Origin: Candidatus Altiarchaeota archaeon
Lineage (GTDB): Archaea > Altiarchaeota > Altiarchaeia > IMC4 > SCGC-AAA252-I15
Reading direction: 5' to 3'
Length of the DNA: 64,000 bases
Assembly (NCBI GenBank): GCA_043813075.1
Contig: JBDRLL010000010.1
Coordinates: 1 to 64,000, forward strand
In this document: piece by piece, positions 13,386 through 33,073 of the stretch
Numbering within the stretch: the stretch's first letter is position 1
Layout of the letters: every line of letters begins with the position of its first letter
The notes under the pieces: generated by a model
Database searches by the model: none
Seen by the model: the letters and a program-made list of their open reading frames with translations, nothing else
Told to the model about the DNA's origin: nothing
Translations under genes and position numbers: made by a program

Positions 13386-13428
13386 ATCGGTTATTATTGT
13401 TCATACCTCTAATAATATACCGGTTCAA

Positions 13429-14283: not shown

Positions 14284-14284
14284 G

Positions 14285-15700: not shown

Positions 15701-17341
15701 ATGAACGCATCCAGGGGAAAGACTCCCACCACATGGCTGGCGGCATTGCTGCTGCTTGCGCTGGCGTTAAGGACGACGGGCATAGGACACCCATTCTACT
15801 CCAATGACCCGGCGGAGATAGCGTTATACTCCACAGTATACTACCCCTCGTCTCCAGGCGGATTGATGAAGGCCTTCGGGTTCTACCATGGGGCAGGGGA
15901 GCTCCTATTCGGCTTCGCAATACTCTGGGTGTACGGACTCCTGGGACTACACGTCACGGAGTTCATGTGGAACCTGCCGTACGCTATAATCGGCACCCTA
16001 ACAGTGCTCACGTCATACTATCTTGTGCTACTGTTCACGCGACGAAAGAGCACCGCACTGACCGCGGCATTGTTCATAGCACTCTACCCACTCCACGTGG
16101 GTGTCTCAAGGGGATCGGGATACGGCCACCACACCATCCCACTATTCCTACAGACCCTCGCAATCATCTCCGCGCACTACTACTATTCACGGCCGAACGG
16201 GAGGCGCGCTCTCCTACTCTCCACGATACTGGCCCTAGAGATACTCTTTGACCTCATATTCCCCTTCATACTTCCGCTAGTGCTATACGTGGGGATGATG
16301 ACGTCGAAAGAAAAGAATCTAATCCAGCAATCAGCCGCGTCCCTCAGAAAGCTTTTGATGCCTGAATTCATCCTACCCTCTCTAGTCCTGCTGGTGAAAG
16401 TCTACTTCCTCCTCAACGCAACAGGCTCAATGGTATACGTGCTCGCGAGGCCGGACGTAATGCTGGGATTCTACCCCCTACACTTCATCATAAACCTGTC
16501 CTACTACCTCAATCCAATCGTGCTGGCGGCATGCCTAGCCTCCCTCGCGCACAATGTAAAAAACCTTTCAAGGGACGGTGCTAGGCTATTCCCGGCATGG
16601 GCGGTCATCTACTCGACCCCCCTCATCTTCATGTTCGGGAGGTGCGTGACTATGCACGCGCTCTCGCCCACGGTGCCACTGCTGATTGCTCTTGCAGTGG
16701 CTGTAAACGATGAGGGAATACTATCAAAGAAAAACCGCATACTGGCAGTATCAATACTGTCCGCGCTCCTACTCGCAGGCACGCTCGCCTCAGTATACCG
16801 GGTGCCTGGCATACCCCTCCAGGATTCATTAGGGAAAATATACTGCAGCAGCACAGTCACCTCCACGTGCAGGCTCAACGTGTGCACCAGCGTGTATGCG
16901 GGAAGAGTATATGGCGACGAGGGGTATAAGGCCGCCGGATACTGGCTCCGTGAGAATACTCCCAGGAACGCTATAGTCTTCAGCGACACCTACGGGCTGG
17001 TGATGGGCAAGAGGAAGAACGTGAAGTACTACACACAACGAAGGCTGGAAGGACTCAACGTAGGCTCACGGAAGTCCATGCTGCGGATATACGGGTCAAA
17101 CAAGAGCAGTTACGACGCACTCCTCATACGGCCTCGGAATGTAGGGCTCTTCAAGGGGTTGGGTCGCTTCCACAAGACTCTCGCAATAACGTCGGGAGGC
17201 AAGACAGTGTTGTTCATCTACACCCGCGAGAAACACTACTCCAACACCCTCCCGGTGAATGCCAGGTTCTACAACGCACTATTCGACCGCAAGTACGCTA
17301 CACCAGAGCAGCTTGCCAGATACCCGGAGGTGCCTGATTGA
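15701..17341 (+). CDS. GT-C/ArnT-like membrane glycosyltransferase (paralog of next gene)
   Basis: Multi-TM; shares FGFYHGAG, TEFMWNLPYA and DEGYKAAGYW with 17338..19062. Confidence 0.7.
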   Translation: MNASRGKTPTTWLAALLLLALALRTTGIGHPFYSNDPAEIALYSTVYYPSSPGGLMKAFGFYHGAGELLFGFAILWVYGLLGLHVTEFMWNLPYAIIGTLTVLTSYYLVLLFTRRKSTALTAALFIALYPLHVGVSRGSGYGHHTIPLFLQTLAIISAHYYYSRPNGRRALLLSTILALEILFDLIFPFILPLVLYVGMMTSKEKNLIQQSAASLRKLLMPEFILPSLVLLVKVYFLLNATGSMVYVLARPDVMLGFYPLHFIINLSYYLNPIVLAACLASLAHNVKNLSRDGARLFPAWAVIYSTPLIFMFGRCVTMHALSPTVPLLIALAVAVNDEGILSKKNRILAVSILSALLLAGTLASVYRVPGIPLQDSLGKIYCSSTVTSTCRLNVCTSVYAGRVYGDEGYKAAGYWLRENTPRNAIVFSDTYGLVMGKRKNVKYYTQRRLEGLNVGSRKSMLRIYGSNKSSYDALLIRPRNVGLFKGLGRFHKTLAITSGGKTVLFIYTREKHYSNTLPVNARFYNALFDRKYATPEQLARYPEVPD

Positions 17342-19062
17342 AGAATGATCGGCGATATCTCCTGGCTTTCATCCTGCTACTCGCATTCATCACCCGCTCC
17401 TACGGCATAGGCACGCCATTCCTGAAGAACGACTCCACAGAGATAGCATTCTACGTCAGCAAATACTACCCCCAGTCGATGGGAGACCTAACCAGGGCAT
17501 TCGGATTCTACCATGGCGCAGGCAACGTGTTCCTGGGATACGCGATAGCCTGGCTCTACAAGGCCCTCAGCATCCCACTCACTGAATTCATGTGGAATCT
17601 ACCATACGCCCTCATAGGGACCAGCACAATACTCGCGGTTTACATAACCACACTACACTTCACCAAAAACGAGAACACCGCACTAACATCATCACTGCTG
17701 CTATCACTGTACCCGCTCCACATCGGATACTCCAGGGTCTCAGGCTACAGCGAAGGCAACATCGGGCTGCTCCTGCAGCTCGCCACCATAACACTGTTCC
17801 ACAAGCACTACTCGAAGCCCACCGGCAAGACCGCTATCGCTGCCGCAATATCACTCGCAATGCTCGCGCTATCAGACATGTTCTCCCCCATGATATTCCC
17901 ACTCATACTCTACATCGGCATATCCGCTTCAGAAGGGAAAACCATGGCCGACTCACTGAAGACCGCTATCCGGAAGACCATGCGCCCAGAGTTCACGATA
18001 CCCCTCCTAGCCATACTGCTAAACTCTGCAGTACTCCTCGGATACCTGCAGAACCCCACGACACCATCCATAACAGCAGGACCACTAATGCACGTCCTAG
18101 ACCGGCCTGACGTCGTGCTAGGATTCTACCCGAAGACCTACGCCATAAACCTCCTCTACTTCATGGGCCCCATAATGTTCCTCGCAGGAATAGTGTCCCT
18201 CACCCACCTCGCCAGAAGGTTCTTCCTTCGCGACGGCAGCAACGTTATAATAGCGTGGTTCACTGCGTACTCGCTGCCATTCCTATTCATGTTCCCCCGG
18301 TGTGTCACAACCTACACGCTCTTCCCCTCAACGCCATTGATGATCCTCACAAGCATCGCTTTGACGCAGCTTCTCGAATCAGGTAAAAGACGAATAAGAT
18401 ACTCTGCGATAACCCTAATCACGGTCATATGCCTATCCCTGCTAGCCAACGACATGTACGCGCTATATAATGTGTGGGAGCATCCGTTCAAAGATTATGC
18501 CGCCAGCCTCTACTGCACCACCATATTCTCCTCATGCCGTTTCACCCCATGCCAACTGCCGATGATAGGCAAGATGCTTCCAGACGAAGGCTACAAGGCC
18601 GCGGGATACTGGATACGTAAAAACACCCGCGAAGACTCCACAATCCTCGACCTGGAGGGCAGGTGGATTTCACGCCGGAAAAGCATCCTATACTACACTC
18701 GAAGACAGCTAGCCGGATGCCTACGGGCCGGGGATTCAGGGGACTGCTCGCCTGAAGTACTGGCTCCATCAATCGGCGGGATAGATGTCGTCCTCAGCAG
18801 CCCGTCCACCGACTTCATGGAAACCCACTACAAGAAATTCCACAAGACTCTTCAGGTAATGGACGGAGTGGAAAAAATCCTAAACGTGTACACGAGGGAG
18901 AGACACTACGACAAGACCCTTCTAGTGCAGGCCTCGGAATACAACCGCCTATACGACATGGAATACGCTGACCCAAGCCTGGTCATAGACGCGGACATGC
19001 GTTCAGACGTCCATATTTTTACGGCAGACGGTAATATAACTATCCCCTCATACTTCCAATAA
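17338..19062 (+). CDS. GT-C/ArnT-like membrane glycosyltransferase (tandem paralog)
   Basis: Same shared motifs as the previous gene; TTG start overlaps the previous stop. Confidence 0.7.
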   Translation: MKNDRRYLLAFILLLAFITRSYGIGTPFLKNDSTEIAFYVSKYYPQSMGDLTRAFGFYHGAGNVFLGYAIAWLYKALSIPLTEFMWNLPYALIGTSTILAVYITTLHFTKNENTALTSSLLLSLYPLHIGYSRVSGYSEGNIGLLLQLATITLFHKHYSKPTGKTAIAAAISLAMLALSDMFSPMIFPLILYIGISASEGKTMADSLKTAIRKTMRPEFTIPLLAILLNSAVLLGYLQNPTTPSITAGPLMHVLDRPDVVLGFYPKTYAINLLYFMGPIMFLAGIVSLTHLARRFFLRDGSNVIIAWFTAYSLPFLFMFPRCVTTYTLFPSTPLMILTSIALTQLLESGKRRIRYSAITLITVICLSLLANDMYALYNVWEHPFKDYAASLYCTTIFSSCRFTPCQLPMIGKMLPDEGYKAAGYWIRKNTREDSTILDLEGRWISRRKSILYYTRRQLAGCLRAGDSGDCSPEVLAPSIGGIDVVLSSPSTDFMETHYKKFHKTLQVMDGVEKILNVYTRERHYDKTLLVQASEYNRLYDMEYADPSLVIDADMRSDVHIFTADGNITIPSYFQ

Positions 19063-19068
19063 CAAAAG

Positions 19069-20733
19069 ATGGATGAATCCCAGAAAGACTGGCGGGTGAC
19101 TCTCTTGCTCGTAGCGTCAGTCGCCGTAGCACTCCTCCTCAGAATCCCTAACCTTTCCTCAACACCCCACTGGTACTGGGATGAGGGCTACAACATGAAC
19201 TACGGGTGGAACCTCTCCCACCTTCGGATACAATGGTTCTCCATAAAATACACCTTCATACCCCACCCACCGCTATACTTCGCGGTTCTCGCGGCAATGA
19301 TAAAGACATTCGGATACTCCCTCTACGCCGCCAGACTCCTCAACGTGCTATACTCCATAATAACCCTGCTCCTAATCTACCTGACGGCGTCAGAGGTGGC
19401 AGACCGTAGGACAGGGGCAATCGCATCCATGCTATACGCAATATACCCTGCGGCAGCATACTGGTCGCGGACAGCCATGATAAACAACCAGTTCTCCCTT
19501 CTTGCAATGTTGTCGCTATACTCGCTGATAGCCTACGCTAGGAAAGGCGGGAGATGGTGGATGCTGTCGTGCGCGAGCGCGGTAGCCGCCACGCTCACAG
19601 CCTACATGGGACTGTCGATAGTGGCCGCCCTACTCCTCTACATGCTGGTCCGCGAGCCGGTGAAGATGAGGAAGGCGTCATTAATACTCGTCACCCCCCT
19701 ACTGTTGTTCACAGCATCCATGCTATTGATACGTGGCAGCTACTTCACCGAGGACATGGCCTACCAGCTAAACCGCTTCCACCTGCTTAGCATAAAAAAA
19801 CTGGCGGCCATACCCGTCCTAATCCTGTTTGCCGCCAACTACAGGAGGCTGAAGCCATTCCTAACCAACCTATTCGACTCTGAAGTCGAGTTGATGTTCG
19901 ACAGCAGGGAATACTTCAATGAAGTATTCGTCCCATCCTGCCTGCTCGCCATAAACTTCCTCCTCGCATACAAGCTGGTGACACCATTCTCAGACGACTC
20001 AGTCTTCTCGGGGGGAGACTACTTCTGGCTTGGAATCATAGGCCTGCTCTTCATAGGCAGGTTCCGGGTTCACGTCGTACTCCTCTACTTCCTACCCCTG
20101 TTCATAACCACAATACTATTGGGGAGGTCAGACCACATGCTCATGCAATTGTATCCATTCTTCGCCATCGGCATAGCAGTACTCCTCGTGGAATACCAGA
20201 AATTCCTGTCCCGAATACTCTCCAAGTGGAATATACCCTCTCCAGCATACGTTTCAATCCTGCTCCTGGCCTCTCCCTTCGCGTTCACGGCATACCATGA
20301 CGCGTCAGCATTCATCATCGGCGGCGTGTTGAGGGAGGAGGACGTTTCTTCCGCGTTCTCGGCGGCAGGATACGTGAATTCAATCGCCGGTGATGAAGAC
20401 CTTGTGCTTACCACAAGCAACCTGGCGGGCATGATAAACGCGAAAACCAACATAATAACCCAAGCATTCGTCTACGAGGGCCGTGGGATAGCATACTACC
20501 GGGCCAACATGACCTCCGACTGGTTCGCATACAACACGTCCATAGACCGGGCGTCATATGTTGTAGTGCCTAAGGGGTCTCTCGAATGGTTTGAGGAGCT
20601 GGGTTACGATGACTTGTACTCCAAGATAGACGGATGGCCTAGGATATACGAAAACCGGATCTACATGGTCTACGCGAACCCGGTTTCACACGATCCAACC
20701 GCTCCAGAAGACAAGCCAAGTCCAAAACACTAG
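19069..20733 (+). CDS. ArnT/PMT-like membrane glycosyltransferase
   Basis: WYWDEG, HPPLY and ARLL motifs; multi-TM. Confidence 0.8.
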   Translation: MDESQKDWRVTLLLVASVAVALLLRIPNLSSTPHWYWDEGYNMNYGWNLSHLRIQWFSIKYTFIPHPPLYFAVLAAMIKTFGYSLYAARLLNVLYSIITLLLIYLTASEVADRRTGAIASMLYAIYPAAAYWSRTAMINNQFSLLAMLSLYSLIAYARKGGRWWMLSCASAVAATLTAYMGLSIVAALLLYMLVREPVKMRKASLILVTPLLLFTASMLLIRGSYFTEDMAYQLNRFHLLSIKKLAAIPVLILFAANYRRLKPFLTNLFDSEVELMFDSREYFNEVFVPSCLLAINFLLAYKLVTPFSDDSVFSGGDYFWLGIIGLLFIGRFRVHVVLLYFLPLFITTILLGRSDHMLMQLYPFFAIGIAVLLVEYQKFLSRILSKWNIPSPAYVSILLLASPFAFTAYHDASAFIIGGVLREEDVSSAFSAAGYVNSIAGDEDLVLTTSNLAGMINAKTNIITQAFVYEGRGIAYYRANMTSDWFAYNTSIDRASYVVVPKGSLEWFEELGYDDLYSKIDGWPRIYENRIYMVYANPVSHDPTAPEDKPSPKH

Positions 20734-21774: not shown

Positions 21775-24700
21775 ATGGTTCAGGCGAGAATGGTGGAATC
21801 AAAACACAATACGAAATCGAAGAAAAAGCTGAAATCAATCATACTCGTCACGCTAACGCTCACGCTAATCCTCTCCATCACCGGCGGCATACGCAGGTCA
21901 ATAGCGCCTACCGGCGGATTCTTCCACACCCTCGCGGACGAGACCGCGTCATGCATGAAGGCGTCGACCGTGCAGCCCAACAGCTGGCCGTGGGGTCTTC
22001 GCTGGCTTGGATGGGGCGTTGAGGGGGTGGTTAAGGTCACTATGGCAGGCCCCTGCGTGATATGGGGTACTGCGGTCGCAGGCCTGGAGGCGATAGTCAA
22101 GTTCATACTCAGCATCACTCTCGCGATATTCATCGGCCTGATGAAACTGGCGATGCTGTACTTCACTTCAACATACCTCTCGCACATAGGGGCAAGCCTG
22201 TTGATAAACGTGTCCGGCCCTACGGGACTGGCTTCTAACGCGGCATACGACAACATACTCTCGACAATGCTTTTGATACTATGGCCATTCTACATGATAC
22301 AGATAGTGTACGTCGGCGGCTACCTGATATTCGCGGCCATCGACCCTGGACAGAGGGCTGGAGCCAAGAAGAGGCTTCAGAACCTCATACTAAGCCTCGT
22401 GTTGGCCGGCCTCTCCAAGCCAATCTACCTGATGCTAGTCGACATATCCAACGGCCTTATAACAGAGTTCGAGGCCATGTCCGGTTCAATAATACCCTCA
22501 TCCTGCGGCACCAGCTATAACATGCTTGCCGGAATGACGACGATCATACTCGCGAAGAGCATAAGCTGGTGGGTGATAGTCCTAGTCACAGTCTTCGTGT
22601 TGGGCGTGTCACTGCTCGTCGCCATGAGGTATGCTTTGGTGATACTATTCTACCTACTGTTCCCTGCCACAATCTTCCTATACTTCTTCGACTTCACGAG
22701 ACAGCTGGGCGGCGACTTGTTTGCCAGGACCATAATGTGGCTGTTCACCGGGCCGGTCATGGCATTGATGGTGCTGATGACAATGTCCCTGATATACGCC
22801 AACATGATGAACATATCCTGCAGCGGCGGCTCGGTCACTAGCGTCGGCAGCATGAAGGCCAGCCTAAGCAGCGACATATTCAGCGCCCCGGACGGCGAGG
22901 GAATAGACCTGCCCTCCGGCGGGAAACCCGGAGACATGAAGGTCATAGGAGACGACGGCAAAGTCGAGTTCAAGGGATCATTCCCCAAGTTCGAGGATGA
23001 CTTGAGCACTGACACTCTTGCTGTGCAGGAATTCCTGAGGAACTTCACAGGCCTCATAATGATTCTCGCATGCTTCAGCGGAATATTACTCGTCCCCATG
23101 TTCATGACCGCGTTGATGAAGTGGGTTGGCGGCGCTATCGCCGCGTCCGGCATGTACGGGCTCGCCCAGGGCGGACCCACCGTCGAGCGGTGGAAGAATT
23201 TCGGCCGTGTCGCAGTGGGCGGCGCGATGATGGGCCAGGGCACAAGGGGTATAGTCTCAGCAGCAACCCAGGCTTCCTGGATGATGTCAGACGGCCCTGC
23301 GCGCGGCGGCGGCCTGTTCCCAAGCCTGTCGGGCAGTCATTCAGGCGGAGGCAAGGCTGCCGGCGGAGGTGGCGGCATATCCTCGTCCACAAGGTCTGGC
23401 GTATTCGCCAGCATGGTCAACCGGTTCTTCGGTCCAGGTTATTCAGACTCCTCTTCAGGCGGCGCTGCAGGCGGAGCAGGCGGTGCTGGTGGTGCTGCAG
23501 GCGGTGCTGGTGGTGCTGCTGGTGGTGCTGGTGGTACTGCTGGCGGTGGCAGGTCTTCCGGAGGATTCCTTGGCCTCGGTAATCTTGCGGGCGTTTTCTC
23601 GAGCGACTTCAAGAACGCGGAGGAGGCTGCCCACGAGTGGTCTGGCATGAGCAAGGGCGCTCCCATCTCTTCTCCAGGCATAATGAGCGCTGGCGGAGCA
23701 GGCTCCGGAATCTATCATGTTGATGACAGTAGGGTTCAGTCCAAGCTTGGCGGCGGTCCTCCGAGCACCGGCACACAGCAGCCTGGGATGTATCCCTACA
23801 CTCCTGACGGAAGCTCTAAGATGGGTGAAGGCGGCTCCGGATACCAGGACCAGTTCGTGGAGATGGATACCGAACAGACACTCAGAAACAGGAAGTCTGC
23901 TGAGAACTTTTTCGGCACCTTCGTCCCGCAGCCTGACATGGGCGGCAGGGTTACCCACGGCGTGGAAGGCTCCATGACAATGGGCCGCGGACTAGTCAAC
24001 CTCTTCATGGGCGGCGTGGTCAGGCCGTTGTCCGGGCGTGAGGGCGCCAGCCTCAGGGCGGCCGCCATGTCGGATTTCGGCCACGGGCTCGCCAAGGTAT
24101 TCTACTCCATCCGTCCCCTCAGCTTCCTTATGCCTGTGAGGGCTGCGGGCAGGATGCTGTTCGGCATAACCCCGGAGATTCTGCCCCCGATGTTCCAGCC
24201 TTACGGCTACTGGCTTGGCCGTCATATGGCGAGCCTGAGCCTGCGGCAGCTGGGGAGGAGGAGCATGTGGAAGGCCGGCTTGCTGGCCGAACGTAGCAGG
24301 TTCGAGGGTTTGAGCGACCAGATACGGGAGGCGGAGTCGAAGGGCGACTTCACCAGGGCCGAGCAATTGCGGGAGCAGCGGGACGCTGTCGGCGACCGGA
24401 TAGCCAACACCCTCGAACGAATCGGCTACGGCAGCGAGTCCGGCATGTTCGTGGGCGAGAACGTGAGGGACTGGAACTTCTACCGCAGGCAGATGGACAT
24501 ACTACGCCAATACAATCCGGAACTATACTCGCACATAATGCGGAACTCGCGTTATTCCATGAATGAGTTCGGGGATAAGGACAACTTATTTTCAAAGAAG
24601 GATAAGACCGCGAAATACTCGGACATAGAGAAGGGAATCAGGGGTAACGAGGATTTGACTCGGCTGGCTGCAATAGACTCGGAGCTGGATAATCCTAACC

Positions 24701-27700
24701 TAGATGCTGCGGATAAACAAAGACTTGAAGCCGAGAAAAAGGCTTTGGAGAAGAAGTATCATGAAGATGATAAGGTTGGGAGGCTTGTCGCGCAGACTGC
24801 TGAGCGTATCGCGTTGAGGGATGGGCGTGAAGTGAAGGACGTCCTGAAGGAACTCCGGGCTGGTCTAACCACCAAAGACGTTGCCGCCCACTCCCGTGCG
24901 ATGTCTGCAGTCGGCATGACCCTGATGATGCAGGACATGGGTTTGAAGGAGACCGTCGACCAGGCCCACTTCGAACGCTCCTTCGGCAGCGACATACTGT
25001 CAGCGAACACCATCACCAACACCTCATTCAGCGCGTACGGCGACAGGGGGCCCACCAGCATTTCGGCCGCAAACTACGGCGAATACTTTGACGCTAACGG
25101 GGCTGCCAGGCAGACGGTTTACTCTTTCGACCCGAACACGGGAGCCAAGGTTAAGATACTTGGCGGCACACTGAACGCGGACGGTACTTTGACTCTCACT
25201 CTCGACGGCTTCAAGGCCCGGAGGTACCATGAGCTGAAGGAAGCCTACCTCGGGGCTGCCGGCAGCAACGAATACCTCTTCCACAAGGAACTATACGAAG
25301 TATTGCTGAACGCCGGCTACAGTCGGGCTGAGGCGTTGGCCCGCTGCAAGTCCGTGAACATACACATGCAGAGGGACGGTGAAGGCCGCCGGTATGTGGA
25401 CAGCACGCGCCTGGGTTATGTGGTCGCCATCCGCGAGTGGGAGGGCGGGCTGGCTGAGGACCGGGGCGGCGACAGGAACCTGGACTCAATGGGCGCGGGC
25501 TTGAAGGGGGAGTCCACCAGCGAATTCATGGACCGGGTTAAGCGCGGTGAAGTCACCGACGAGGAAGTGAGGCTCATAGGAGAACTCCATGCCGGCAGGA
25601 GTGTCGCGGACATTGAGGCTGACATAGACCGGATAGCGGAAGCCCAGGTCGACGCTGAGCAGGCTAGGCGGCTGGCTGACACGACCGGGAAATCCATTGA
25701 CGAAGCGAAAGAGGAGTTGAAGAAGCGGAATGCCGCGGCCCTAAAGCAGACCCTGCAGGTCGTGCAAGGCATGGAGGTGGCGGCAGCGAAGAGGGCTGCC
25801 AACGACGTCATCACAGAGCAGGAGAAGCAGGGCCTGCTCACGCGGGAGCAGGCTGAGGCTGCCAGGTCCGACGTCGACCAGAAGAGGGGGCAGTATGTGG
25901 ACCAGTTGGCGCAGCTTCAATCCAGGATGAGGGAGAACGCGGCGGAATACGTCGCCTCGCTGGGCGCCTATAATGGCATGGACTTCAGGTTCCGCAGCCT
26001 ACATGTTCCAGGCAGCGTGGAGGAGTCAGACCTGGAGGAGCGCAGTTTCTCGCAGGAGATATCCCGCGCCGGCGGAAGGGTCACCGGATTCGCGATACAC
26101 CAGATGACCGAGGACGAGACGCCGAGAGAAGGCCAGGCGGTAAGCCACCGTGGCCAGAACGTCCAGCTGCTGGGCAACGCAGCCCACATAATCGAGGGCC
26201 AGCGGATGATCATCGTGGAGACGGAGTTCAACAGGACCGCCAGCCAGCACACTATATACGATTCCCGCGGCAACGCCATAGCGCTCACTGCAGCCAACAT
26301 GGACGACATAATCCGGAGGGCGCGGGGCGGCGCGGAATTCAGCGTCATGGACCATGAGGGCAGGCGCACCCGCATAAAAGACATTGCCGCAGACTCTTCA
26401 GGGAATGTGACATTAAGCTACGACAAATACTACCACCTCGGCCAATGGCGGCTCAGGGGCGCGGGCCACGGCCACACCGTCGAGGTGGTGGCTTCACCAG
26501 ACCTGTTGGGGAGGGAGGATGTTAAGTCCTCTGGGTATGATGCTTCAAGGAGGCATAGCAAGCTTGCTGTCGGCCACTATACTATTGAGCGCCTGTCCCA
26601 TAACGAGGAACTGGTTGCTGACGCTAACAGGCGTTACGACGAGGATGCGGGCTTGAGGAGCGTGCTGGAGAAGCAGGCTGAGGAGAGGTATACTGCATTA
26701 TACGGTGACGGGTGGGGTGCGCTTGCTCCCGAGCGCAAGGAGGCTTTTGTGCGGAGGGAGTTCATACTCCATGAGATGAGCATAGTCCGCACGCAAATGC
26801 ACGTTAATCCCGGGCAGGTGCACGAGATGATTACCCGGCACGGGTATACATCAGAGCAGATAAACGACATGCTATGGCACGCGTGGAAGGCGAACGAGGG
26901 CTTCAACAACAGCCACTGGAGGCGGGCTATACGCGCGCACCTCAAGGAACGCGGACAGCTGTCACCCGACGAGGACACCGCCGGACAGCAGGTGGAGGAC
27001 CAGCTGAAGGCCTACCGTTCTGGCGGCGACATGGACCGGTCTCTGAGGGAGCGTCTGGATCGGGAGGGCGTGCGCATCAACAGCGTCACCCTCGAGCACA
27101 ATCCGGGCGACGACAGCCCAGCGAGGGTGATAGTCGACGGCTTGGGTGCCAACATAAAGGTGAACATGGGGTACGCGGACCGGATTGCTGAGGAGCATGT
27201 CATCACAGACCTGTCCCACCACATCATGCGGGACCAGGCGATGGAGGAGATATACGGTGCCACAGGATTGGACAGGAGTGTGGAAGCCGACGTAGAGCAG
27301 GCCGAGCAGTTGTGGTCCGAGTACGTTTCCGGCCGCATGCAGAGGTCTGATATTGCGGAGGAGCAGCGGTTGGCTGAACGCCTCGCGCAAGTCAGCGTGC
27401 CCGCGAGGGAGGAGGCTGAGCGGGTGTACGACAACTATCAGACTGGCATGATGAACTACGACGACCCCCGTCAGCTGGAGCAGGCGCACGTGATAAGACA
27501 GCTTGAAGACCACCATTCCGCATCATCCATGCAGGAGTTCAGTGAGGGCCTCAGGCACGACTACCTGTCCCACGAGTTCCGCCACTCCTACGTGCGGAGG
27601 AAGATGTCTGATGTGCGGCAGAACCTACTGCACAATGAGAGCAAGCCCGACATAGACGGGCCCACCATAAGCGAGCACTATGACAGCCTCACTTCGTCCA

Positions 27701-28152
27701 TGGGCGGCGACCTGGTCGACAGGTATGTGGAGGAGTTCGCAGCCGACTTGAGGAGTCCTGAAGAGCATCCAGTCCACGGTCCTGGGAAGACCGCGTACGG
27801 TGAAGACGTTGAAAAACAGTTGGACGCCAGGCAGAGGGTGCGTCAGGACGTCCTGGACTCAAATACGACAAGCGGGGTTCAGGGCAGGGCGGACATACTC
27901 AACAAGGCCCGTTTCGCGGTGGAGGAGGAGATGGCTGTCGACATGAGCAGGCTGGGCCGCACAGGCTATGAGGAATATCCGGAACGCCAGGTGGGGAACG
28001 CGTCATACCAGCCGGGGGCTGACCACACGTCCTTCGACAGCCTGGTCGAATCGTCTCTCGGGCCTGACAGTCCGGAGTACGTGCAGTACCATTCATTCAA
28101 GAGGATACTGCACAGCATAGGAAGCCAGGTCACCGAAGGGCATCTACTATAA
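21775..28152 (+). CDS. Giant (2125 aa) protein: N-terminal VirB6/TrbL-like membrane domain, Gly-rich linker, large soluble region with HEXXH motif
   Basis: TM-rich first ~480 aa aligns by eye with 28625..30937; GGAGGAA linker; coiled-coil stretches; HEFRH at 27571-27585. Confidence 0.65.
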   Translation: MVQARMVESKHNTKSKKKLKSIILVTLTLTLILSITGGIRRSIAPTGGFFHTLADETASCMKASTVQPNSWPWGLRWLGWGVEGVVKVTMAGPCVIWGTAVAGLEAIVKFILSITLAIFIGLMKLAMLYFTSTYLSHIGASLLINVSGPTGLASNAAYDNILSTMLLILWPFYMIQIVYVGGYLIFAAIDPGQRAGAKKRLQNLILSLVLAGLSKPIYLMLVDISNGLITEFEAMSGSIIPSSCGTSYNMLAGMTTIILAKSISWWVIVLVTVFVLGVSLLVAMRYALVILFYLLFPATIFLYFFDFTRQLGGDLFARTIMWLFTGPVMALMVLMTMSLIYANMMNISCSGGSVTSVGSMKASLSSDIFSAPDGEGIDLPSGGKPGDMKVIGDDGKVEFKGSFPKFEDDLSTDTLAVQEFLRNFTGLIMILACFSGILLVPMFMTALMKWVGGAIAASGMYGLAQGGPTVERWKNFGRVAVGGAMMGQGTRGIVSAATQASWMMSDGPARGGGLFPSLSGSHSGGGKAAGGGGGISSSTRSGVFASMVNRFFGPGYSDSSSGGAAGGAGGAGGAAGGAGGAAGGAGGTAGGGRSSGGFLGLGNLAGVFSSDFKNAEEAAHEWSGMSKGAPISSPGIMSAGGAGSGIYHVDDSRVQSKLGGGPPSTGTQQPGMYPYTPDGSSKMGEGGSGYQDQFVEMDTEQTLRNRKSAENFFGTFVPQPDMGGRVTHGVEGSMTMGRGLVNLFMGGVVRPLSGREGASLRAAAMSDFGHGLAKVFYSIRPLSFLMPVRAAGRMLFGITPEILPPMFQPYGYWLGRHMASLSLRQLGRRSMWKAGLLAERSRFEGLSDQIREAESKGDFTRAEQLREQRDAVGDRIANTLERIGYGSESGMFVGENVRDWNFYRRQMDILRQYNPELYSHIMRNSRYSMNEFGDKDNLFSKKDKTAKYSDIEKGIRGNEDLTRLAAIDSELDNPNLDAADKQRLEAEKKALEKKYHEDDKVGRLVAQTAERIALRDGREVKDVLKELRAGLTTKDVAAHSRAMSAVGMTLMMQDMGLKETVDQAHFERSFGSDILSANTITNTSFSAYGDRGPTSISAANYGEYFDANGAARQTVYSFDPNTGAKVKILGGTLNADGTLTLTLDGFKARRYHELKEAYLGAAGSNEYLFHKELYEVLLNAGYSRAEALARCKSVNIHMQRDGEGRRYVDSTRLGYVVAIREWEGGLAEDRGGDRNLDSMGAGLKGESTSEFMDRVKRGEVTDEEVRLIGELHAGRSVADIEADIDRIAEAQVDAEQARRLADTTGKSIDEAKEELKKRNAAALKQTLQVVQGMEVAAAKRAANDVITEQEKQGLLTREQAEAARSDVDQKRGQYVDQLAQLQSRMRENAAEYVASLGAYNGMDFRFRSLHVPGSVEESDLEERSFSQEISRAGGRVTGFAIHQMTEDETPREGQAVSHRGQNVQLLGNAAHIIEGQRMIIVETEFNRTASQHTIYDSRGNAIALTAANMDDIIRRARGGAEFSVMDHEGRRTRIKDIAADSSGNVTLSYDKYYHLGQWRLRGAGHGHTVEVVASPDLLGREDVKSSGYDASRRHSKLAVGHYTIERLSHNEELVADANRRYDEDAGLRSVLEKQAEERYTALYGDGWGALAPERKEAFVRREFILHEMSIVRTQMHVNPGQVHEMITRHGYTSEQINDMLWHAWKANEGFNNSHWRRAIRAHLKERGQLSPDEDTAGQQVEDQLKAYRSGGDMDRSLRERLDREGVRINSVTLEHNPGDDSPARVIVDGLGANIKVNMGYADRIAEEHVITDLSHHIMRDQAMEEIYGATGLDRSVEADVEQAEQLWSEYVSGRMQRSDIAEEQRLAERLAQVSVPAREEAERVYDNYQTGMMNYDDPRQLEQAHVIRQLEDHHSASSMQEFSEGLRHDYLSHEFRHSYVRRKMSDVRQNLLHNESKPDIDGPTISEHYDSLTSSMGGDLVDRYVEEFAADLRSPEEHPVHGPGKTAYGEDVEKQLDARQRVRQDVLDSNTTSGVQGRADILNKARFAVEEEMAVDMSRLGRTGYEEYPERQVGNASYQPGADHTSFDSLVESSLGPDSPEYVQYHSFKRILHSIGSQVTEGHLL
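23479..23541 (+). repeat. 3 x 21-bp tandem repeat encoding GGAGG[AT]A linker
   Basis: ggcggtgctggtggtgctgca / ggcggtgctggtggtgctgct / ggtggtgctggtggtactgct. Confidence 0.85.
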
Positions 28153-28167
28153 CTTGATGGAAAAAAA

Positions 28168-28638
28168 ATGAGTGAAGAAGACGGGGTGAAGGGCCTCAGC
28201 GAGGAGGACATAATAGAGTACTACGTGCAGTCCCACCTGGAGGACCGTGAGCTCATGGAGGACGACTCCAAGGACGCTTTCACCAGGATGATTGTGGAAC
28301 ACTTGTACGGCGGCGTCACTCTGTCGCTGCCGATGGTCGACTGGAACCGGCTGTTCAGCGAGAACAAGTGTCCGGTGTGCGGTGACATGATGAGTCTCAC
28401 AGGAGAGGAATACTTGTGCGGCAAATGCGATTTTCACGTGCCCGCGAAGCTGTACGACAAGGCGAAGAACCGGCATGAACGTGAGATGGGGTTGATGAGG
28501 AAGAGGCGCGAGTTCTCAGGGAAGTTGGGTGAAGCCAAGTTGTCCCACGAGAAGATGATGTCCCTGTACGTTAGGGCGTCTTCCATAGCGTCCTCCAGAA
28601 AACCGATAATGGAGAAGAAAAAGGATGGGCAGGACTAA
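28168..28638 (+). CDS. Zinc-ribbon protein
   Basis: CPVC-x11-CGKC motif; operonic spacing with both neighbours. Confidence 0.7.
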   Translation: MSEEDGVKGLSEEDIIEYYVQSHLEDRELMEDDSKDAFTRMIVEHLYGGVTLSLPMVDWNRLFSENKCPVCGDMMSLTGEEYLCGKCDFHVPAKLYDKAKNRHEREMGLMRKRREFSGKLGEAKLSHEKMMSLYVRASSIASSRKPIMEKKKDGQD

Positions 28639-30937
28639 GCTAATACTATGGGTGGTGTTGTCGACCGTGATATTCCAGGGCATTCTCCTAGCCGTGGCCA
28701 CACCCCCCTCCGGAGTGGTCCCGGACAAGAAGACTACCGCGGAGATAGTGAAGGTCTTCTCCTCCGACGTTGACGAGGCGGTGGAGGGTCTTGCGGGAGT
28801 CAAGATAGGCTCGCTAACATACAATCCAACCGTATTCTGCCCTCCAGGAGCGTCAGACTGCAAGGTGACTGCCGGCGTCAGCGAGATGATAGACACGTTC
28901 ATAAGCCTGACCATCCCATTCTACGTCATAGCAGTCCTGTTCACCGGATTATTCTTCATATTCAAGAGCGGCTCCCCAAAGGCGCGGGCAAGAGCGAGGT
29001 CCATGTTCCTGAAACTCCTGTACGGAATGTTCTTCGTCGTCATGTCGCCCGCAATCTACCAGGTGATGCTGGACATGGACGTCCTGCTCGTAAGGTACCT
29101 GGTGCACGACATACCTGTGACAATGGACTTATGGTTCTTCGAACTCTCACTGCCAGGCAACCCGCTGCCCCCGGTCGGAAAATACCTGAACGTGCTATCC
29201 CATCCCATAAGCTACGCTCCGGGAGGCATAGCATACTGCATGTTCATGATAGTCTACCTGATGGCAGTCATATTCGCCTCCATAATCGCGTGGGTGCGCA
29301 ACATACTGGTGTTCGTCTACGGCGTATTCTTCCCCATAATCGTCTTCTTCTACTCATTCGACCCCACCAAGGCTTGGGGCAAGAAGTGGTTTAACGACGC
29401 GATAAAATGGGTTTTCGTTCCCGTAATACAGGCCGCGATACTCGCCTTCACCATCGCCATAGTCTTCAGCGTTTCACAGTCAATGAGCTTCAACACCCCT
29501 GTGATGAATTCAATGGTCTTCTTCGCGATATGCGCTGGAAACGCGTTGTTCGCGGCAGCACCCCTCATAGTCGGACAGGTCATGGGATGGTTCGGCAACG
29601 CCATAGTCGCGATGGGATTGGGGAGCGGTAGGACGTGGATGGTGGCGTGGGGCGGGATACTCGCAGGCCAAGGCCACTCCGGCATAGCATACGCTCACTC
29701 GGAATACTCGCGACAGAGGGCCTATGAAAACATGATGGCAGCCAACTACGGGATGATCGACATGGGCTACCAGGTTCAGGGCATGCGCGGTGCAGGCGCT
29801 ATCGCCGCAGGCAGGGACGGCGGCGGGATGATAGGCGGCGGTGGCGGTGGAGTGCAAGCACTCGGCGCAGACGGTACCGCAGCATCCGTAGTGGCTCCTG
29901 CTGTAGGCCACGCCAGGCCTGGCATGAGACGGACTGCGCTAGGCAGGATGCGTGCCGCAGCCCAGAGGGCGCACGGCGACTACAGCAGTTTCGTCGACCA
30001 CAGCGACGACTTCAGCGCAGAAGATTCAACGGAGGGAGGCGGTGTTCCAAGTTCCGCTGGGGGGGAAGATAGTGTGGGCGGGCATGCGGGAACCACAGGC
30101 CACGGAAGCCCTGGAAGAGCTGGCGGCAGAAGGGGGCGTGCCGGCGGAGTCACTTCAGCGCGCCGACAGCCGGCTGGAAGGCCTACGGCACCCGGTCCTG
30201 CAGGCGAACCTGCAGTGGAGGCGGACACTGGCGCGTCAAATCCTATGGACAAGAGCCTCGACGAGCTGGCGATGGATCAGGCTACTGGTGGAGGAGACAA
30301 GCCAGCAAGCCCTTACGCTGTTGACTCGAATGCTGACGATGGGCAGGGCGTGTCAGGCGGCATGGACATGGACATGCCTTCCGCAGTGGCTGCCGCAGCA
30401 AGGGCGGGCAAGGGGGGTAAGGGCATATTCTCTGAGATAGCTAATGAACTGGATTCAAAGCAGTCTGCCGAGCAGAAGGTGACAGCCTCTCCCGGCAAGC
30501 CTGAACCACTGCCTGTGGACCAGCAGGGCGGGGACGTGGATCAGGGCAAGGTGGGCGGTGACGACGAGTACCATGACCGGTGGGAGGCTAGCGACAACAA
30601 GGATGTTGCTGGCATGAAGCCCGCGTTGGCTGCAGGCATGGGCGGCGGCAAGGCCGGCTCGACACCCGACGGTAGGCGGATGGAGAATCAGTCCGCTGAG
30701 GCTGCGAAAAAGCAGGCTGATGACATGCGGACCGCCGAAGAACAGCGTGCGTTAAGACAGAGCGGGGAGCGGGAGCATGAGGAGGCAGGCCAGAGGGGTG
30801 TGGCAGTGCACCAGCGGTTGGGGCGTGAAGGAGTCAAGGATCACGAGGCAAAAGGCAAGGAAGGCAGTGCAGAGTCAGAGGAGTCTGCTAACGCTGAACG
30901 ACGCAAGCAGGATATGAAGAAGAATTCTAGGAAGTAG
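28625..30937 (+). CDS. VirB6/TrbL-like membrane protein with long Gly/acidic low-complexity tail
   Basis: About 7 TMs; R...FP....Y.FDPTKAWGKKW...F.P motif; C-terminal ~400 aa appears disordered. Confidence 0.65.
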   Translation: MGRTKLILWVVLSTVIFQGILLAVATPPSGVVPDKKTTAEIVKVFSSDVDEAVEGLAGVKIGSLTYNPTVFCPPGASDCKVTAGVSEMIDTFISLTIPFYVIAVLFTGLFFIFKSGSPKARARARSMFLKLLYGMFFVVMSPAIYQVMLDMDVLLVRYLVHDIPVTMDLWFFELSLPGNPLPPVGKYLNVLSHPISYAPGGIAYCMFMIVYLMAVIFASIIAWVRNILVFVYGVFFPIIVFFYSFDPTKAWGKKWFNDAIKWVFVPVIQAAILAFTIAIVFSVSQSMSFNTPVMNSMVFFAICAGNALFAAAPLIVGQVMGWFGNAIVAMGLGSGRTWMVAWGGILAGQGHSGIAYAHSEYSRQRAYENMMAANYGMIDMGYQVQGMRGAGAIAAGRDGGGMIGGGGGGVQALGADGTAASVVAPAVGHARPGMRRTALGRMRAAAQRAHGDYSSFVDHSDDFSAEDSTEGGGVPSSAGGEDSVGGHAGTTGHGSPGRAGGRRGRAGGVTSARRQPAGRPTAPGPAGEPAVEADTGASNPMDKSLDELAMDQATGGGDKPASPYAVDSNADDGQGVSGGMDMDMPSAVAAAARAGKGGKGIFSEIANELDSKQSAEQKVTASPGKPEPLPVDQQGGDVDQGKVGGDDEYHDRWEASDNKDVAGMKPALAAGMGGGKAGSTPDGRRMENQSAEAAKKQADDMRTAEEQRALRQSGEREHEEAGQRGVAVHQRLGREGVKDHEAKGKEGSAESEESANAERRKQDMKKNSRK

Positions 30938-30938
30938 A

Positions 30939-32147
30939 ATGGCATTCAGTGACGAGAAGGAGTCTGAGATAAAGAAGGTCCAGGAAGACATCCAGATGGA
31001 CGAGCGGGACATAAGGCGTATCGAGGAGATAACAGAGGAAGCCCGCATAAGAAACAAGATAATACGGGCGGAGATAATGGACGCCGGCAGGCTCCAGGTC
31101 AGCGACTCTGCTGAAGAGTCTGGTGAAATACGGCACGGCGGGGACGGGGACGATGATGACGGCAGCGGCGGGAAGAAGATTGAGCTAACGCTAGGCAAGA
31201 AGGATGTGGAAGGAGGTTCACTAACAACGTTCGGGGAGATATTCGGCCCCGGAGCGGAGATATCATTCAGGCCTTCCGGTGACGTGACTGTCCGAATGGA
31301 TTCCGGCAGGCTCGACTCAGCGCTCGGCAACGTGATGCATCAGGAGAGCGCCTTCCTCGGCAAAACAGGGTCGCGAAGCACCCCCCGCACACGGGTGCCT
31401 GTCGTCAGCGGCTTGAGGGAGCTTTTAACCAGGCGTTCCATGGACCGCCTAAGGTTGATAAACTCCAGAAGGCCTCTGAACTCGGAGGAAGTCAATCAAT
31501 TCCGGTGGCTCATGGAAGGGCAGGACCATTCTCACGTGAGGCGGTGGTTCGCTCCCGGATTGGACTCGTTCAACGCGGTCCGCATGGGGGAGGAGTTACG
31601 CCAGCTCAACAAGAGGTCTCTCCACGAGAACCTGGAGCAGGATGATGAGGAGAAGCGGGCCTGGCTCAAACAGCAGATTGGCTGGCGTCTGTCAGACGAC
31701 GAGAGGAAGGAACTCGGATGGACGGGCCCCCGCTACGGCGAGGAGGCTGGCGTGTTAGGCTATGTGAAGCCCTACCTGTTCATCACCAACTACGACATGC
31801 TCACTTGGAGGAGGAGGAACGCGTACTGGTGGTGGCGTGACAACCTATTCCTCAGGACCCAGCACAACCTAGTCCGCAGGTGGCTGCCAAAGAAGTCTAA
31901 GCTATGGTGGGCGACCAAGTACAAGAGGAAGGCGATAGAATCCATGTTCGACGACATGGACGAGGAGATATACAACGAGAAATGGTATAAAGAGCAGGGT
32001 AAGGTTCATAAGGAGCTGGAGGACTACGAGGAGGAGATACGCGGATTCGACGCCTTCACAGTGCAGGAGGAGAAGGAGATAGAGAAACTATACGCTAAAT
32101 GGCTTGACGAGCAGAAGAAGTGGGAGACGTTACAGGAGGCATACTAG
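30939..32147 (+). CDS. Hypothetical soluble protein (N- and C-terminal coiled coils, Trp/Arg-rich patch) in T4SS-like operon
   Basis: 402-aa ORF starting 1 bp after the previous stop. Confidence 0.7.
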   Translation: MAFSDEKESEIKKVQEDIQMDERDIRRIEEITEEARIRNKIIRAEIMDAGRLQVSDSAEESGEIRHGGDGDDDDGSGGKKIELTLGKKDVEGGSLTTFGEIFGPGAEISFRPSGDVTVRMDSGRLDSALGNVMHQESAFLGKTGSRSTPRTRVPVVSGLRELLTRRSMDRLRLINSRRPLNSEEVNQFRWLMEGQDHSHVRRWFAPGLDSFNAVRMGEELRQLNKRSLHENLEQDDEEKRAWLKQQIGWRLSDDERKELGWTGPRYGEEAGVLGYVKPYLFITNYDMLTWRRRNAYWWWRDNLFLRTQHNLVRRWLPKKSKLWWATKYKRKAIESMFDDMDEEIYNEKWYKEQGKVHKELEDYEEEIRGFDAFTVQEEKEIEKLYAKWLDEQKKWETLQEAY

Positions 32148-32188: not shown

Positions 32189-33073
32189 ATGCCCTACGCG
32201 ATACCTGCAAACATAAGATACGAGGAGAGACTTGTCGGCCCCCTAACCATAAAACAAAGCCTATACCTCGCGTTCAGCCTTGTTGGGGCATGGATGATAT
32301 ACAACAACGAGGGTATTCCCGAAGTAGCGAGGCTTCTGGGCGCTCTATTTCTCACCGGAATCGGTCTCGGACTTGCCTTCGCCAACCTTGACGTATGGGC
32401 TAGGAACTACTTCAACTTCATGAGGCAGGCCAAGAAGACCTCATGGATATCGCCTGCCGCAAGAAAGCTCATGAACATACAGTCGATAAGGGCTGACACG
32501 GTATTCCTAAAGGATCATGGCGTCCTTGGTCTTATCGGCGTTAAGCCCATAAACTTCGGCGTCCTCTCCGAGCAGGATAAGGACACGGTCATCTACGGTT
32601 TCCTCGAGTTCCTGAACTCCCTCAACTTCCCCATACAGATAGTCATGCGTAGCGTCAACCTGGATCTTGAGGACTATCTCACCCACCTTAAGCGGCGCAT
32701 CACCCAGCGGGACGACAAGGTCGCGCTCGCCTACTACGAGCACTTCGCGGAGTACATGCGGAGTTACATCAAGATAAACAAGATCAACGACAGGCACTTC
32801 TACGTGGTTGTTCCGGGAAAGAAGAAGAAGACAGAGAAGGAGACAATAGACTACCTGACCACCCAGTGCAATGAGATAATGGCGAGGCTGGGGCTTTCCG
32901 GAATAGTCGCCGAGAGGCTTAACACGAACCAGCTGATAAACTTCTACAGCAGCTACTTCACGGAGACTTTCGAGATATACGAGAGCTACATAAGCCCGAT
33001 AACGCTATACCGTAAGATGTGGCGTGAGGCGCCTAAGATGGTGAATCCAAAGCATTCCAAGGGGGGGGCGTAG
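32189..33073 (+). CDS. PrgI/VirB3-like protein fused to a VirB4-N-terminal-like domain
   Basis: IPANIRYEERLVGPLTIKQ plus two TMs (PrgI pattern); KPINFGVLSEQDK...FLNSLNFPIQI; RHFYVV. Confidence 0.8.
   Translation: MPYAIPANIRYEERLVGPLTIKQSLYLAFSLVGAWMIYNNEGIPEVARLLGALFLTGIGLGLAFANLDVWARNYFNFMRQAKKTSWISPAARKLMNIQSIRADTVFLKDHGVLGLIGVKPINFGVLSEQDKDTVIYGFLEFLNSLNFPIQIVMRSVNLDLEDYLTHLKRRITQRDDKVALAYYEHFAEYMRSYIKINKINDRHFYVVVPGKKKKTEKETIDYLTTQCNEIMARLGLSGIVAERLNTNQLINFYSSYFTETFEIYESYISPITLYRKMWREAPKMVNPKHSKGGA

Follow-up and report, generated by a model that had tools for sequence, protein, structure and literature searches.

A VirB6/CedA-like membrane protein with a putative gluzincin-type domain and a predicted zinc-ribbon partner in a type IV secretion system-like locus of an Altiarchaeota archaeon

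Type IV secretion system (T4SS)-like machines of archaea are known from the Ced/Ted DNA importers and from a few plasmids, and to our knowledge their accessory enzymology is almost blank. Extended VirB6 proteins, in which a VirB6-like domain is followed by a very long C-terminal extension, are already known, as are T4SS-associated hydrolases and gluzincins; the F-plasmid protein TraG is one such extended protein, and the Rickettsiales carry several RvhB6 paralogs of this kind per genome. These bacterial tails of Rickettsiales or TraG are not known to contain a peptidase motif or to be paired with a zinc-ribbon protein encoded downstream. Here, a stretch of 64,000 nucleotides (nt) from a Candidatus Altiarchaeota archaeon (assembly GCA_043813075.1, contig JBDRLL010000010.1, positions 1 to 64,000; hereafter the window) was analyzed, in which one uninterrupted reading frame encodes a giant protein of 2125 amino acids (aa), P0001, next to the gene of a small zinc-ribbon protein, p156 (Table 1).

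By comparing P0001 with its relatives and with predicted structures, we arrive at the reading that it is a VirB6/CedA-like subunit whose long cytoplasmic tail carries a gluzincin-type domain capped by p156. As a whole, this reading has in our judgment about an even chance of being correct. Shown directly are the conservation of the HEXXH...E motif, the locus, and the co-occurrence of the domain with p156; the secondary-structure context and the interface with p156 are model predictions, and zinc binding, peptidase activity, the cytoplasmic side and the capping are inferred.

Conservation of the HEXXH motif and a downstream glutamate

The preliminary description of this window had singled out a HEXXH motif near the C-terminus of P0001. 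The protein does contain the strings quoted there: ARVIVDGLGANIKVN, EEFAAD (with the codon of E1986 beginning at nt 27730) and EEEMAVD. In a protein of this size and composition, a lone HEXXH is weak evidence: 0.09 motifs are expected from the composition, and at least one appeared in 1770 of 20000 shuffles, which is not significant. The motif being unremarkable in one sequence, the case therefore rests on its conservation in relatives. In the domain alignment A3 (16 sequences, with 14-47% identity to P0001), the residues H1933, E1934, H1937, E1987 and A2045 are invariant, and conservation of at least 90% is seen for N1797, where the third strand ends; the same five invariant residues are among the 17 invariant columns of A5, the full-length alignment of 14 orthologs. 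A lack of conservation in orthologs had been named beforehand as grounds to reject this claim; the canonical motif can be read in 16 genomes, and the claim was not refuted on this point. E1987 is the second Glu of EEFAAD and lies 50 aa beyond H1937, the corresponding spacing being 42 aa in the ortholog P0002; its motif occurs in the variants EFAAD, ELNSN, ETLSD, ESAAN and ETLAS. A Glu-helix motif of the E-x-x-x-D/N type is found in thermolysin and neprilysin, and HExxH followed by E-x-x-x-D/N is the gluzincin signature. Of the two candidates proposed earlier for the third zinc ligand, EEFAAD stands, E1987 being invariant in 16/16 and 14/14 sequences, and EEEMAVD falls away, being kept in the closest relatives only.

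When the domain profile was run against 1.84 billion representative proteins, nine matches were obtained, one of which (P0010) is a PDZ protein and was discarded as a false positive. Because just eight true members are found in a collection of this size, the family appears to be very rare. The metagenomic members P0007, P0008 and P0009 each have HExxH and E-x-x-x-D, and P0002 has the HEXXH as well. A length-matched search of 5.8 billion protein clusters with P0001 returned two relatives only, P0002 and P0003. P0002 (1878 aa; source label Candidatus Altiarchaeota archaeon) is 35% identical over 84% of P0001 and keeps YLTHEFRHAW, EEFIAD and VEEE, and the ~110 aa that separate the NIKVNMG strand from the HEXXH in P0001 are missing from it; P0003 resembles P0001 in the N-terminus alone.

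Among 61 genomes of the phylum, the domain profile found the domain in 18, with one copy each and always within the giant open reading frame (ORF). By family, it is present in 15 of the 20 f1 genomes plus the source genome, in both f3 genomes, in 0 of 22 f5 genomes and in 0 of 12 genomes of f8 and f9. An unfiltered local search added two diverged copies of genus g6, in G014 (HETTH, EGLAD) and in G006, where the contig end cuts the copy; the motif is unreadable at contig ends in G010 and G006. At the 14 loci with long copies, 11 long ORFs have the HEXXH 151-254 residues from the C-terminus, and the remaining three are those of L011, L015 and L016. The L015 ORF (G030, family f5) is a 2018-aa giant without the protease-type domain; the other two carry an altered motif that is weighed below. 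Separately, some orthologs contain a second HEXXH (IIRHEELHAKYDG / IIRHEKLHAEYEG), at about aa 1810 in P0007 and at aa 1365 in the L016 ORF, placed in an extra C-terminal extension of ~650 aa beyond the first domain. In G013, the giant gene consists of two ORFs, an N-terminal one of 481 aa and another of 2031 aa.

Predicted fold of the domain and its partner p156

By modeling aa 1750-2125 with AlphaFold from the 16-row alignment (pLDDT 84.3, pTM 0.78), the structural context of these residues may be approached. The model runs, in this order, through a short helix, strands 18-25, 34-39 and 42-48 (aa 1767-1774, 1783-1788 and 1791-1797), a helical insertion, helix 149-204 with the HEXXH at 184-188, helix 229-242 with E1987 at 238, and a helical C-terminal part. 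Foldseek and VIA searches with this model, its 110-aa insertion included, gave nothing interpretable, and the insert-free ortholog P0002 was therefore modeled. The model of its C-terminal 241 aa (pLDDT 84.1, pTM 0.81) has the same order of elements, with the HEXXH within helix 59-90 and the Glu within helix 109-122. The Foldseek rows for this model include MATCAP, DPP III, an M61 aminopeptidase, 4l7a, SPRTN (6mdw) and proabylysin, at E values of 0.35-2.1.

VIA was used in two ways, as a search of 48161 chains independent of Foldseek and as a re-alignment of Foldseek's 857 best chains, with 50 rows listed for each. In the former, the top Z of 5.3 goes to unrelated helical proteins; 4 of the 50 rows listed align from residue 1 of the insert-free model, and all four are gluzincins: ZMPSTE24 (Z 4.9, rmsd 6.7 over 145 aligned positions), an M1 aminopeptidase (Z 4.7, rmsd 5.3 over 141), LTA4 hydrolase (Z 4.7, rmsd 4.9 over 144) and Ste24p (Z 4.5, rmsd 6.5 over 155). 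In the re-alignment, 16 of the 50 rows listed start at model residue 1-2 and take in the sheet and both helices, at Z 3.0-4.2, a range common for helical models. These 16 rows are DPP III (four times), M61, MATCAP (twice), 4l7a (a putative zinc metallopeptidase), 3e11 (a predicted zincin-like metalloprotease), jannalysin, selecase, abylysin, M1, PprI, the HExxH domain of ChlB, and 2ejq, which is titled 'conserved hypothetical'; 14 of them are peptidases, ChlB and 2ejq being the exceptions. The predicted fold is thus consistent with a zincin architecture, short of proof. Of the gluzincin assignment in the preliminary description, the part that stands is the conserved HExxH...E on predicted helices behind a small sheet; the zincin fold itself is matched weakly, at Z 3.0-4.9.

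Sequence-level searches gave few leads. When the 16 domain sequences were scanned at E<=10, the sole match was to a BSP peptidase, in one of the 16 (E 0.01); in the ESM Atlas, the C-terminal domain gave low-score leads only (0.80-0.83: LPD23, Peptidase_M78); and searches of PDB sequences with P0001 and the profiles A3, A5 and A7 gave no meaningful match.

The gene of p156 starts 16 nt past the stop of the giant, and its product is soluble, with no signal peptide and no transmembrane (TM) or hydrophobic segment. W59, F63, C68, P69, C84 and C87 are invariant in its family. Full-length homologs (E <= 1.1e-18) occur in 19 of the 61 phylum genomes, and p156 lies directly after the giant in each of the 18 genomes in which both the domain and the sequence beyond it could be examined. 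The domain of G006 is cut by the contig end, and the giant of G013 has a further C-terminal extension of ~660 aa. In G023, the nineteenth genome with p156, just 771 nt of contig lie upstream of p156, too little to judge the pairing; the contigs of G001 and G010 stop at the giant or within it. At L015, where the giant is without the protease-type domain, the fetched stretch holds no p156 homolog. Weak matches to the p156 profile (E>1e-6) in 17 genomes fall on the zinc-ribbon part of unrelated 300-aa ORFs and were left uncounted.

A complex of aa 1400-2125 of the giant (alignment A5) with p156 (alignment A6) was predicted in three runs, together with three controls. The ipSAE values were 0.72, 0.73 and 0.78 (median 0.73), and the best control reached 0.00; in the benchmark, 116 of 157 solved complexes but just 2 of 215 mismatched pairs attain this mark, counts that are rough here, as custom alignments were used. 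The three runs share at least 83% of contacts, and the pLDDT of the partner is at least 77. These predictions support binding of p156 to the domain of the giant, short of showing it. On the giant, the predicted interface takes in E1934, H1937, E1987 and A1990, the sheet at 1776-1795, and residues 1959-1983, 2029-2043 and 2094-2107; p156 contributes residues 47-61, with the invariant W59 among them, and its helical C-terminal part. p156 is predicted to cover the putative active-site cleft. In Pfam/NCBIfam scans, p156 matched no known inhibitor or immunity family.

Membrane domain, sidedness of the tail and locus

The preliminary description had P0001 begin with a TM domain followed by a Gly/Ala linker, and this layout is borne out by hydropathy and composition. 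The N-terminus is rich in K and leads into a signal-anchor (aa 21-39); hydrophobic segments span about aa 21 to 455, and beyond them follows a Gly/Ala/Ser-rich stretch with 38 Gly per 100 residues at aa 501-600, which is poorly conserved in A5. The conserved hydrophobic segments, at about aa 105-137, 161-185, 204-222, 265-305, 318-345 and 422-452, are in keeping with the five or more spans of VirB6/TrbL/CedA proteins. In a six-frame search of 41 related genomes, the domain (aa about 150-340) was found in 39, in several copies each, in ORFs whose lengths range from about 300 aa to over 2000 aa; the remainder of P0001 was matched in far fewer.

A helical hairpin in this domain is pilin-like. Its loop, AIDPGQRAGAKKRLQ, resembles that of the neighboring pilin, AEDPGARKQAKQG, and T4SS_pilin is the sole Pfam match in P0001, under the cut-off. 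Among relatives, 8 of 14 long ORFs match the same profile at E<0.05, one of them at 28.9 bits (cut-off 26.6), and a paralog of the domain in the same genome scores 26.4 bits. In Beltran et al. (2023, PMC9905601), the N-terminal part of both CedA and VirB6 is described as pilin-like, and the hairpin therefore argues for a protein of the VirB6/CedA type. The same hairpin could also belong to a pilus-associated giant that is no channel subunit, being inserted in the base or tip of a pilus with the tail displayed as an adhesin or enzyme; the T4SS_pilin match, the loop resemblance and the several pilin paralogs in the genome would suit such a protein. However, at least four further conserved hydrophobic segments lie beyond the hairpin, p770 and a paralog of 1740 aa, which give the only TrbL matches of the genome, are homologs of this domain, and the pilin-like N-terminus is itself a described trait of CedA and VirB6, so that we consider a pilus-associated giant very improbable.

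The TrbL (PF04610) profile points in the same direction by way of these paralogs. A six-frame scan of the assembly gave two matches only, both of them paralogs of the membrane domain of P0001: p770 (E 0.0087, 16.3 bits with hmmscan; 22.6 bits, E 6.5e-5 in the genome scan) and, on the same contig, the paralog of 1740 aa (13.8 bits, covering positions 27-211 of the profile). The p770-type proteins of L014 and L022 score 20.4 and 17.8 bits. Based on its architecture and context, P0001 is likely a VirB6 member, the TrbL matches being sub-threshold. The VirB6-like assignment made earlier is thus upheld by a polytopic protein with a pilin-like hairpin in a T4SS-like locus with VirB4 and a VirB2-type pilin.

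The domain recurs elsewhere. The source genome holds three further giants with a pilin/VirB6-like domain and different tails, none of which adjoins VirB4; the tail of one ends in a helix-hairpin-helix motif, and the giant at C10:78561-83780 stands in an apparent operon with unknown proteins of 266, 1502 and 148 aa. In family f5 (e.g. G026:C1:1245575-1250041, G040, G034), three to five short copies of the membrane domain (about 300-400 aa) form tandem arrays; VirB4 is present in 20 of 22 genomes of this family, and the protease-type domain in 0 of 22.

The side of the membrane on which the tail lies was approached by counting lysine plus arginine (K+R) in 29 family members. The counts are 4.5 in the pilin-like loop 186-203, 2.4 in loop 306-317 and 1.7 in the 40 residues past the last span; in loops 133-160, 223-264 and 346-421 they are 0.9, 1.3 and 1.0. 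These values fit a model with the tail inside, provided that aa 265-305, with the invariant R285, crosses the membrane once. Because this positive-inside count and the prediction of the signal-less p156 on the active-site face point the same way, a cytoplasmic tail is favored, by two weak but independent lines. On the other hand, the domain may be an outward-facing envelope protease, an archaeal counterpart of the VirB1-type wall hydrolases found in bacterial T4SS, which opens the S-layer of its own or a partner cell for a pilus or channel, or which matures pilins. Two spans within aa 265-305 would place the tail outside, and a five-span VirB6 with one extra helix would by analogy end outside as well; no other hydrolase candidate was found in the locus by Pfam/NCBIfam scans; and bacterial monoderm and Patescibacteria T4SS loci are described in PMC12102498 as carrying wall hydrolases or peptidases. 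The K+R distribution and the position of p156 speak against this alternative, and the charged, Cys-poor tail beyond the linker (one Cys in 1670 aa; 7 N-glycosylation sequons observed and 6.5 expected) bears no sign of a surface protein, which is weak evidence in itself; an envelope protease therefore seems quite unlikely to us. S-layer cutting and pilin processing by the tail had both been suggested in the preliminary description, and since they need the tail outside the cell, a cytoplasmic tail speaks against both. A C244-C349 disulfide was dropped as a topology marker, each Cys being kept in only 3 of 14 orthologs.

The features of the giant and of its locus are collected in Table 1.

Table 1. 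Coordinates of P0001, its parts and the surrounding genes (window positions unless a contig is given)
Feature	Position	Strand	Evidence or remarks
P0001 giant gene, 2125 aa	21775..28152	+	VirB6/CedA-like membrane domain (likely), linker, orphan middle region, C-terminal gluzincin-type domain (putative)
P0001 membrane domain, aa 1-455	21775..23139	+	hydropathy of P0001; 16- and 29-sequence alignments
Pilin-like helical hairpin, aa 159-222	22249..22440	+	Pfam T4SS_pilin aa 159-213, E 0.0084
Gly/Ala/Ser-rich low-complexity linker, about aa 505-700	23287..23874	+	composition per 100 aa
Middle motif P781-x-S783-...-P787-x-R789-..-G792-...-P804	24115..24186	+	invariant columns, 14 full-length orthologs
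C-terminal gluzincin-type domain (putative), aa about 1765-2125	27067..28149	+	AlphaFold models, conserved residues
Helical insertion, 110-120 aa, between sheet and active-site helix	27172..27534	+	absent from the other 15 aligned domains
HEXXH motif, H1933 E1934 F R H1937	27571..27585	+	single HEXXH of P0001; in predicted helix, model residues 149-204
E1987, candidate third zinc ligand, motif E-x-x-x-[D/N/S] (EFAAD)	27733..27735	+	invariant; predicted helix, model residues 229-242
p156, 156 aa, CxxC...CxxC zinc ribbon	28168..28638	+	predicted partner over the active-site cleft of the gluzincin-type domain
VirB2-type pilin, 115 aa	21286..21633	+	signal peptide; two-helix hairpin, loop AEDPGARKQAKQG; T4SS_pilin E 7.6e-12, TrbC/VirB2 E 1.1e-05
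p770, second membrane-domain paralog, disordered Gly/Asp/Glu-rich tail	28625..30937	+	best TrbL/VirB6 match in genome
p402, soluble, highly charged	30939..32147	+	no family match; homolog at same position in L012
294-aa protein, N-terminal TM segment and VirB4 N-terminal domain	32189..33073	+	VirB4_plasma positions 83-277 E 2.6e-15; PrgI E 0.0062
VirB4-type ATPase, 759 aa	33074..35353	+	conju_CD1110 E 1.7e-88; P-loop_TraG E 7.1e-26
Two pilin-like genes	35571-35873, 35909-36268	+	T4SS_pilin E 3.5e-07 (35909-36268); phmmer with first pilin E 1.5e-05, 2.5e-05
Three further giants (loci L023, L024), 1736, 1727 and 2188 aa	C10:78561-83780; C20:12072-17273; C20:17277-23846	-; +; +	

In 9 of the orthologous loci fetched, a pilin gene likewise precedes the giant, and the order pilin, giant, p156-homolog, p770-homolog is repeated in the fetched loci of relatives. 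p770 is related to the N-terminus of P0001 (phmmer E 6e-08), and its position is conserved in relatives. VirB4 is split into two adjacent ORFs, the 759-aa ORF beginning at the base after the stop of the 294-aa ORF, and the TM segment of the 294-aa protein gives a weak PrgI/VirB3-like match. VirB4 occurs once in the assembly (1.8 Mb, 89% complete); its orthologs, 59-87% identical, are present in 45 of the 61 phylum genomes, all in one order and none in families f8 and f9. Both flanks consist of housekeeping and glycosylation genes (eRF1, PheRS beta, SepRS, ThrRS, both PolD subunits, AglJ-like, PMT-type transferases), and family scans of these flanks found no integrase or relaxase. The T4SS-like system of the locus is chromosomal and vertically inherited, and it resembles the Ced/Ted DNA importers or the T4SS of Patescibacteria, as these are described in PMC9905601 and PMC12102498, more than a conjugative element. 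Candidates for a coupling protein were rejected, the profiles matching only 45-78-residue N-terminal profile stretches in two ~510-aa ORFs, one 501-aa ORF and VirB4 itself.

Some further features were noted. Four tandem VirB2-type pilin paralogs lie at C36:84738-86028 (L025), far from the T4SS-like locus. Directly upstream of the locus, at window positions 13339-20733, is a glycosylation-type cluster with an AglJ-like GT2, a B12-binding radical SAM protein, a PMT_2/Agl23-like protein and two unknown membrane proteins of 546 and 574 aa. At window positions 823-914 (-), ARAGORN calls a tRNA-Pro of 92 nt with anticodon AGG at position 37, whose length suggests an intron or a miscall.

Proposed function and comparison with known systems

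Based on the results presented above, the following mechanism may be proposed. P0001 would be a membrane subunit of a chromosomal T4SS-like apparatus made up of VirB2-like pilins, two VirB6-like proteins and a split VirB3/VirB4 ATPase, and its tail of ~1650 aa would hang from the last membrane helix by the flexible Gly-rich linker. The gluzincin-type domain would be made on the cytoplasmic side; H1933 and H1937 on the HEXXH helix and E1987 on the next-but-one helix would hold zinc, and E1934 would act as the general base of a peptidase. p156 would be bound across the active-site cleft, and because it is predicted to bind there, the protease may be latent or gated while it is held at the base of the machine. 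Two roles are then conceivable: the protease may work at the channel entrance, where it would process either a substrate in transfer or a component of the machine, or the tail may itself be cargo that is released and uncapped on transfer. We lean slightly toward the channel entrance.

The cargo role draws on the immunity-like arrangement of the two genes, on the faster divergence of the tail and p156 (14-47% identity for the giant domain and 22-37% for p156, compared to 59-87% for VirB4), and on four paralogs in the same genome with different tails; what speaks against it is that a single domain has long been conserved at the same locus. In its fullest form, the protein would be a delivery platform: the gluzincin domain would be an effector encoded in cis, p156 would keep the producer safe, and the domain would be uncapped, cleaved and sent through the channel into a neighbor, the four other membrane-domain proteins of the genome with different tails representing further cargoes. 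We hold this elaboration to be unlikely. The preliminary description had likewise considered a toxin-like cargo, and this idea gains an immunity-like element from the downstream p156. It had also raised the possibility of swapped C-termini, which fails at the orthologous loci, where the domain is kept in 20 genomes, and holds loosely for paralogs elsewhere, which carry other tails.

Several findings weigh against a p156-capped cytoplasmic gluzincin-type tail on a VirB6/CedA-like subunit. With regard to the membrane domain, P0001 itself has no TrbL match, the TrbL scores of its paralogs are all below the cut-off of 25.9 bits, and the tail would lie outside if aa 265-305 crossed the membrane twice. 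With regard to the tail, about 1000 aa (aa 700-1750) show no recognizable fold or family: sequence and profile searches with the middle region gave no Pfam, PDB or ESM Atlas match, and an ESM Atlas search with aa 1000-1759 gave nothing usable. The C-terminal domain of P0001 has no family match in Pfam/NCBIfam, and Foldseek gave no match at E<=0.001 for either domain model (E>=0.2 for the insert-free one). The best VIA Z values for the domain models, 5.3-5.8, are to unrelated helical proteins, and the zincin rows in the VIA listings are tied with many such proteins. The complex of the giant with p156 is a model from unpaired alignments. Finally, in G004 (L011) and G013 (L016), both of genus g4, the motif reads HELAGH, with one residue inserted between the two His, and the Glu motif and the p156 homolog are retained in spite of this; judging from these sequences, catalysis may be dispensable or altered in the two genomes.

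The last point bears directly on another interpretation, in which the domain is a non-proteolytic module, its HExxH...E metal site being structural or serving other chemistry, or the domain being a pseudo-enzyme that docks p156 or other factors. HExxH oxygenase-like domains exist, and the HExxH domain of the oxygenase ChlB is among the weak fold matches (8s5f, Z 3.1). The p156 homologs retained beside HELAGH are clear (E 1.6e-54 in G004 and 1.4e-54 in G013), and no match to any peptidase family is significant. However, the catalytic Glu of the HExxH is invariant in addition to the two His, the sheet-plus-helices rows of VIA are peptidases with the two exceptions named above, and HExxH with the downstream E-x-x-x-D/N is a gluzincin signature. 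A module without proteolytic function thus appears rather improbable.

If the p156-capped gluzincin-type tail is accepted, its implications extend beyond this window. A chromosomal machine of the VirB4/VirB2/VirB6 type is kept across an entire archaeal order, and in at least two families of this order its channel-type subunit has a protease-type domain with a predicted cap. Should the domain be active, it would offer a handle, through the mutation of a single catalytic Glu and the removal of a single partner, on substrate processing by such machines or on the delivery of protein cargo between archaeal cells. Should it moreover serve in delivery, it would represent an effector-immunity system of archaea that is based on a T4SS and has its effector as part of a channel subunit. 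No description of a VirB6-type protein fused to a protease-type domain was found in searches of the open-access literature. What appears to be new is this fusion, to a domain of an unclassified and very rare family; the fixed pairing of the protease-type domain with a zinc-ribbon protein predicted to lie over its active site; and the occurrence of both within a T4SS-like system that is chromosomal and shared by an archaeal order.

Among known systems, no sequence similarity to RvhB6 or TraG was detected, and the likeness to these extended proteins is one of architecture, a VirB6-like domain with a very long C-terminal extension. VirB6/TrbL and CedA/TedA are, like P0001, polytopic and encoded beside a VirB4-type ATPase and VirB2-type pilins, and the Ced/Ted systems are, like that of P0001, chromosomal, neither a relaxase nor a convincing coupling protein being found. 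Unlike VirB6 and CedA, the membrane domain of P0001 has two to five paralogs per genome, and the tail of ~1650 aa with its enzyme-type domain is absent from CedA, TedA and VirB6. The gluzincins, that is, the minigluzincins selecase (4qhj), projannalysin (4jix) and proabylysin (4jiu) as well as M48 Ste24/ZMPSTE24, M1 and DPP III, likewise have the HExxH helix behind a small sheet and the Glu on a later helix. Compared to them, the domain of P0001 reaches a Z of just 3.0-4.9 with no sequence-family match, has a helical C-terminal extension of ~130 aa and, in the source genome alone, the 110-aa insertion, and is fused to a subunit of a membrane machine. Finally, as in protease-inhibitor, zymogen and toxin-immunity pairs, a small protein is encoded right after the putative catalytic domain, is predicted to lie over its cleft and always co-occurs with it; unlike toxin-immunity pairs, which are strain-swapped, the pair of the giant and p156 is fixed at one locus across at least two archaeal families.

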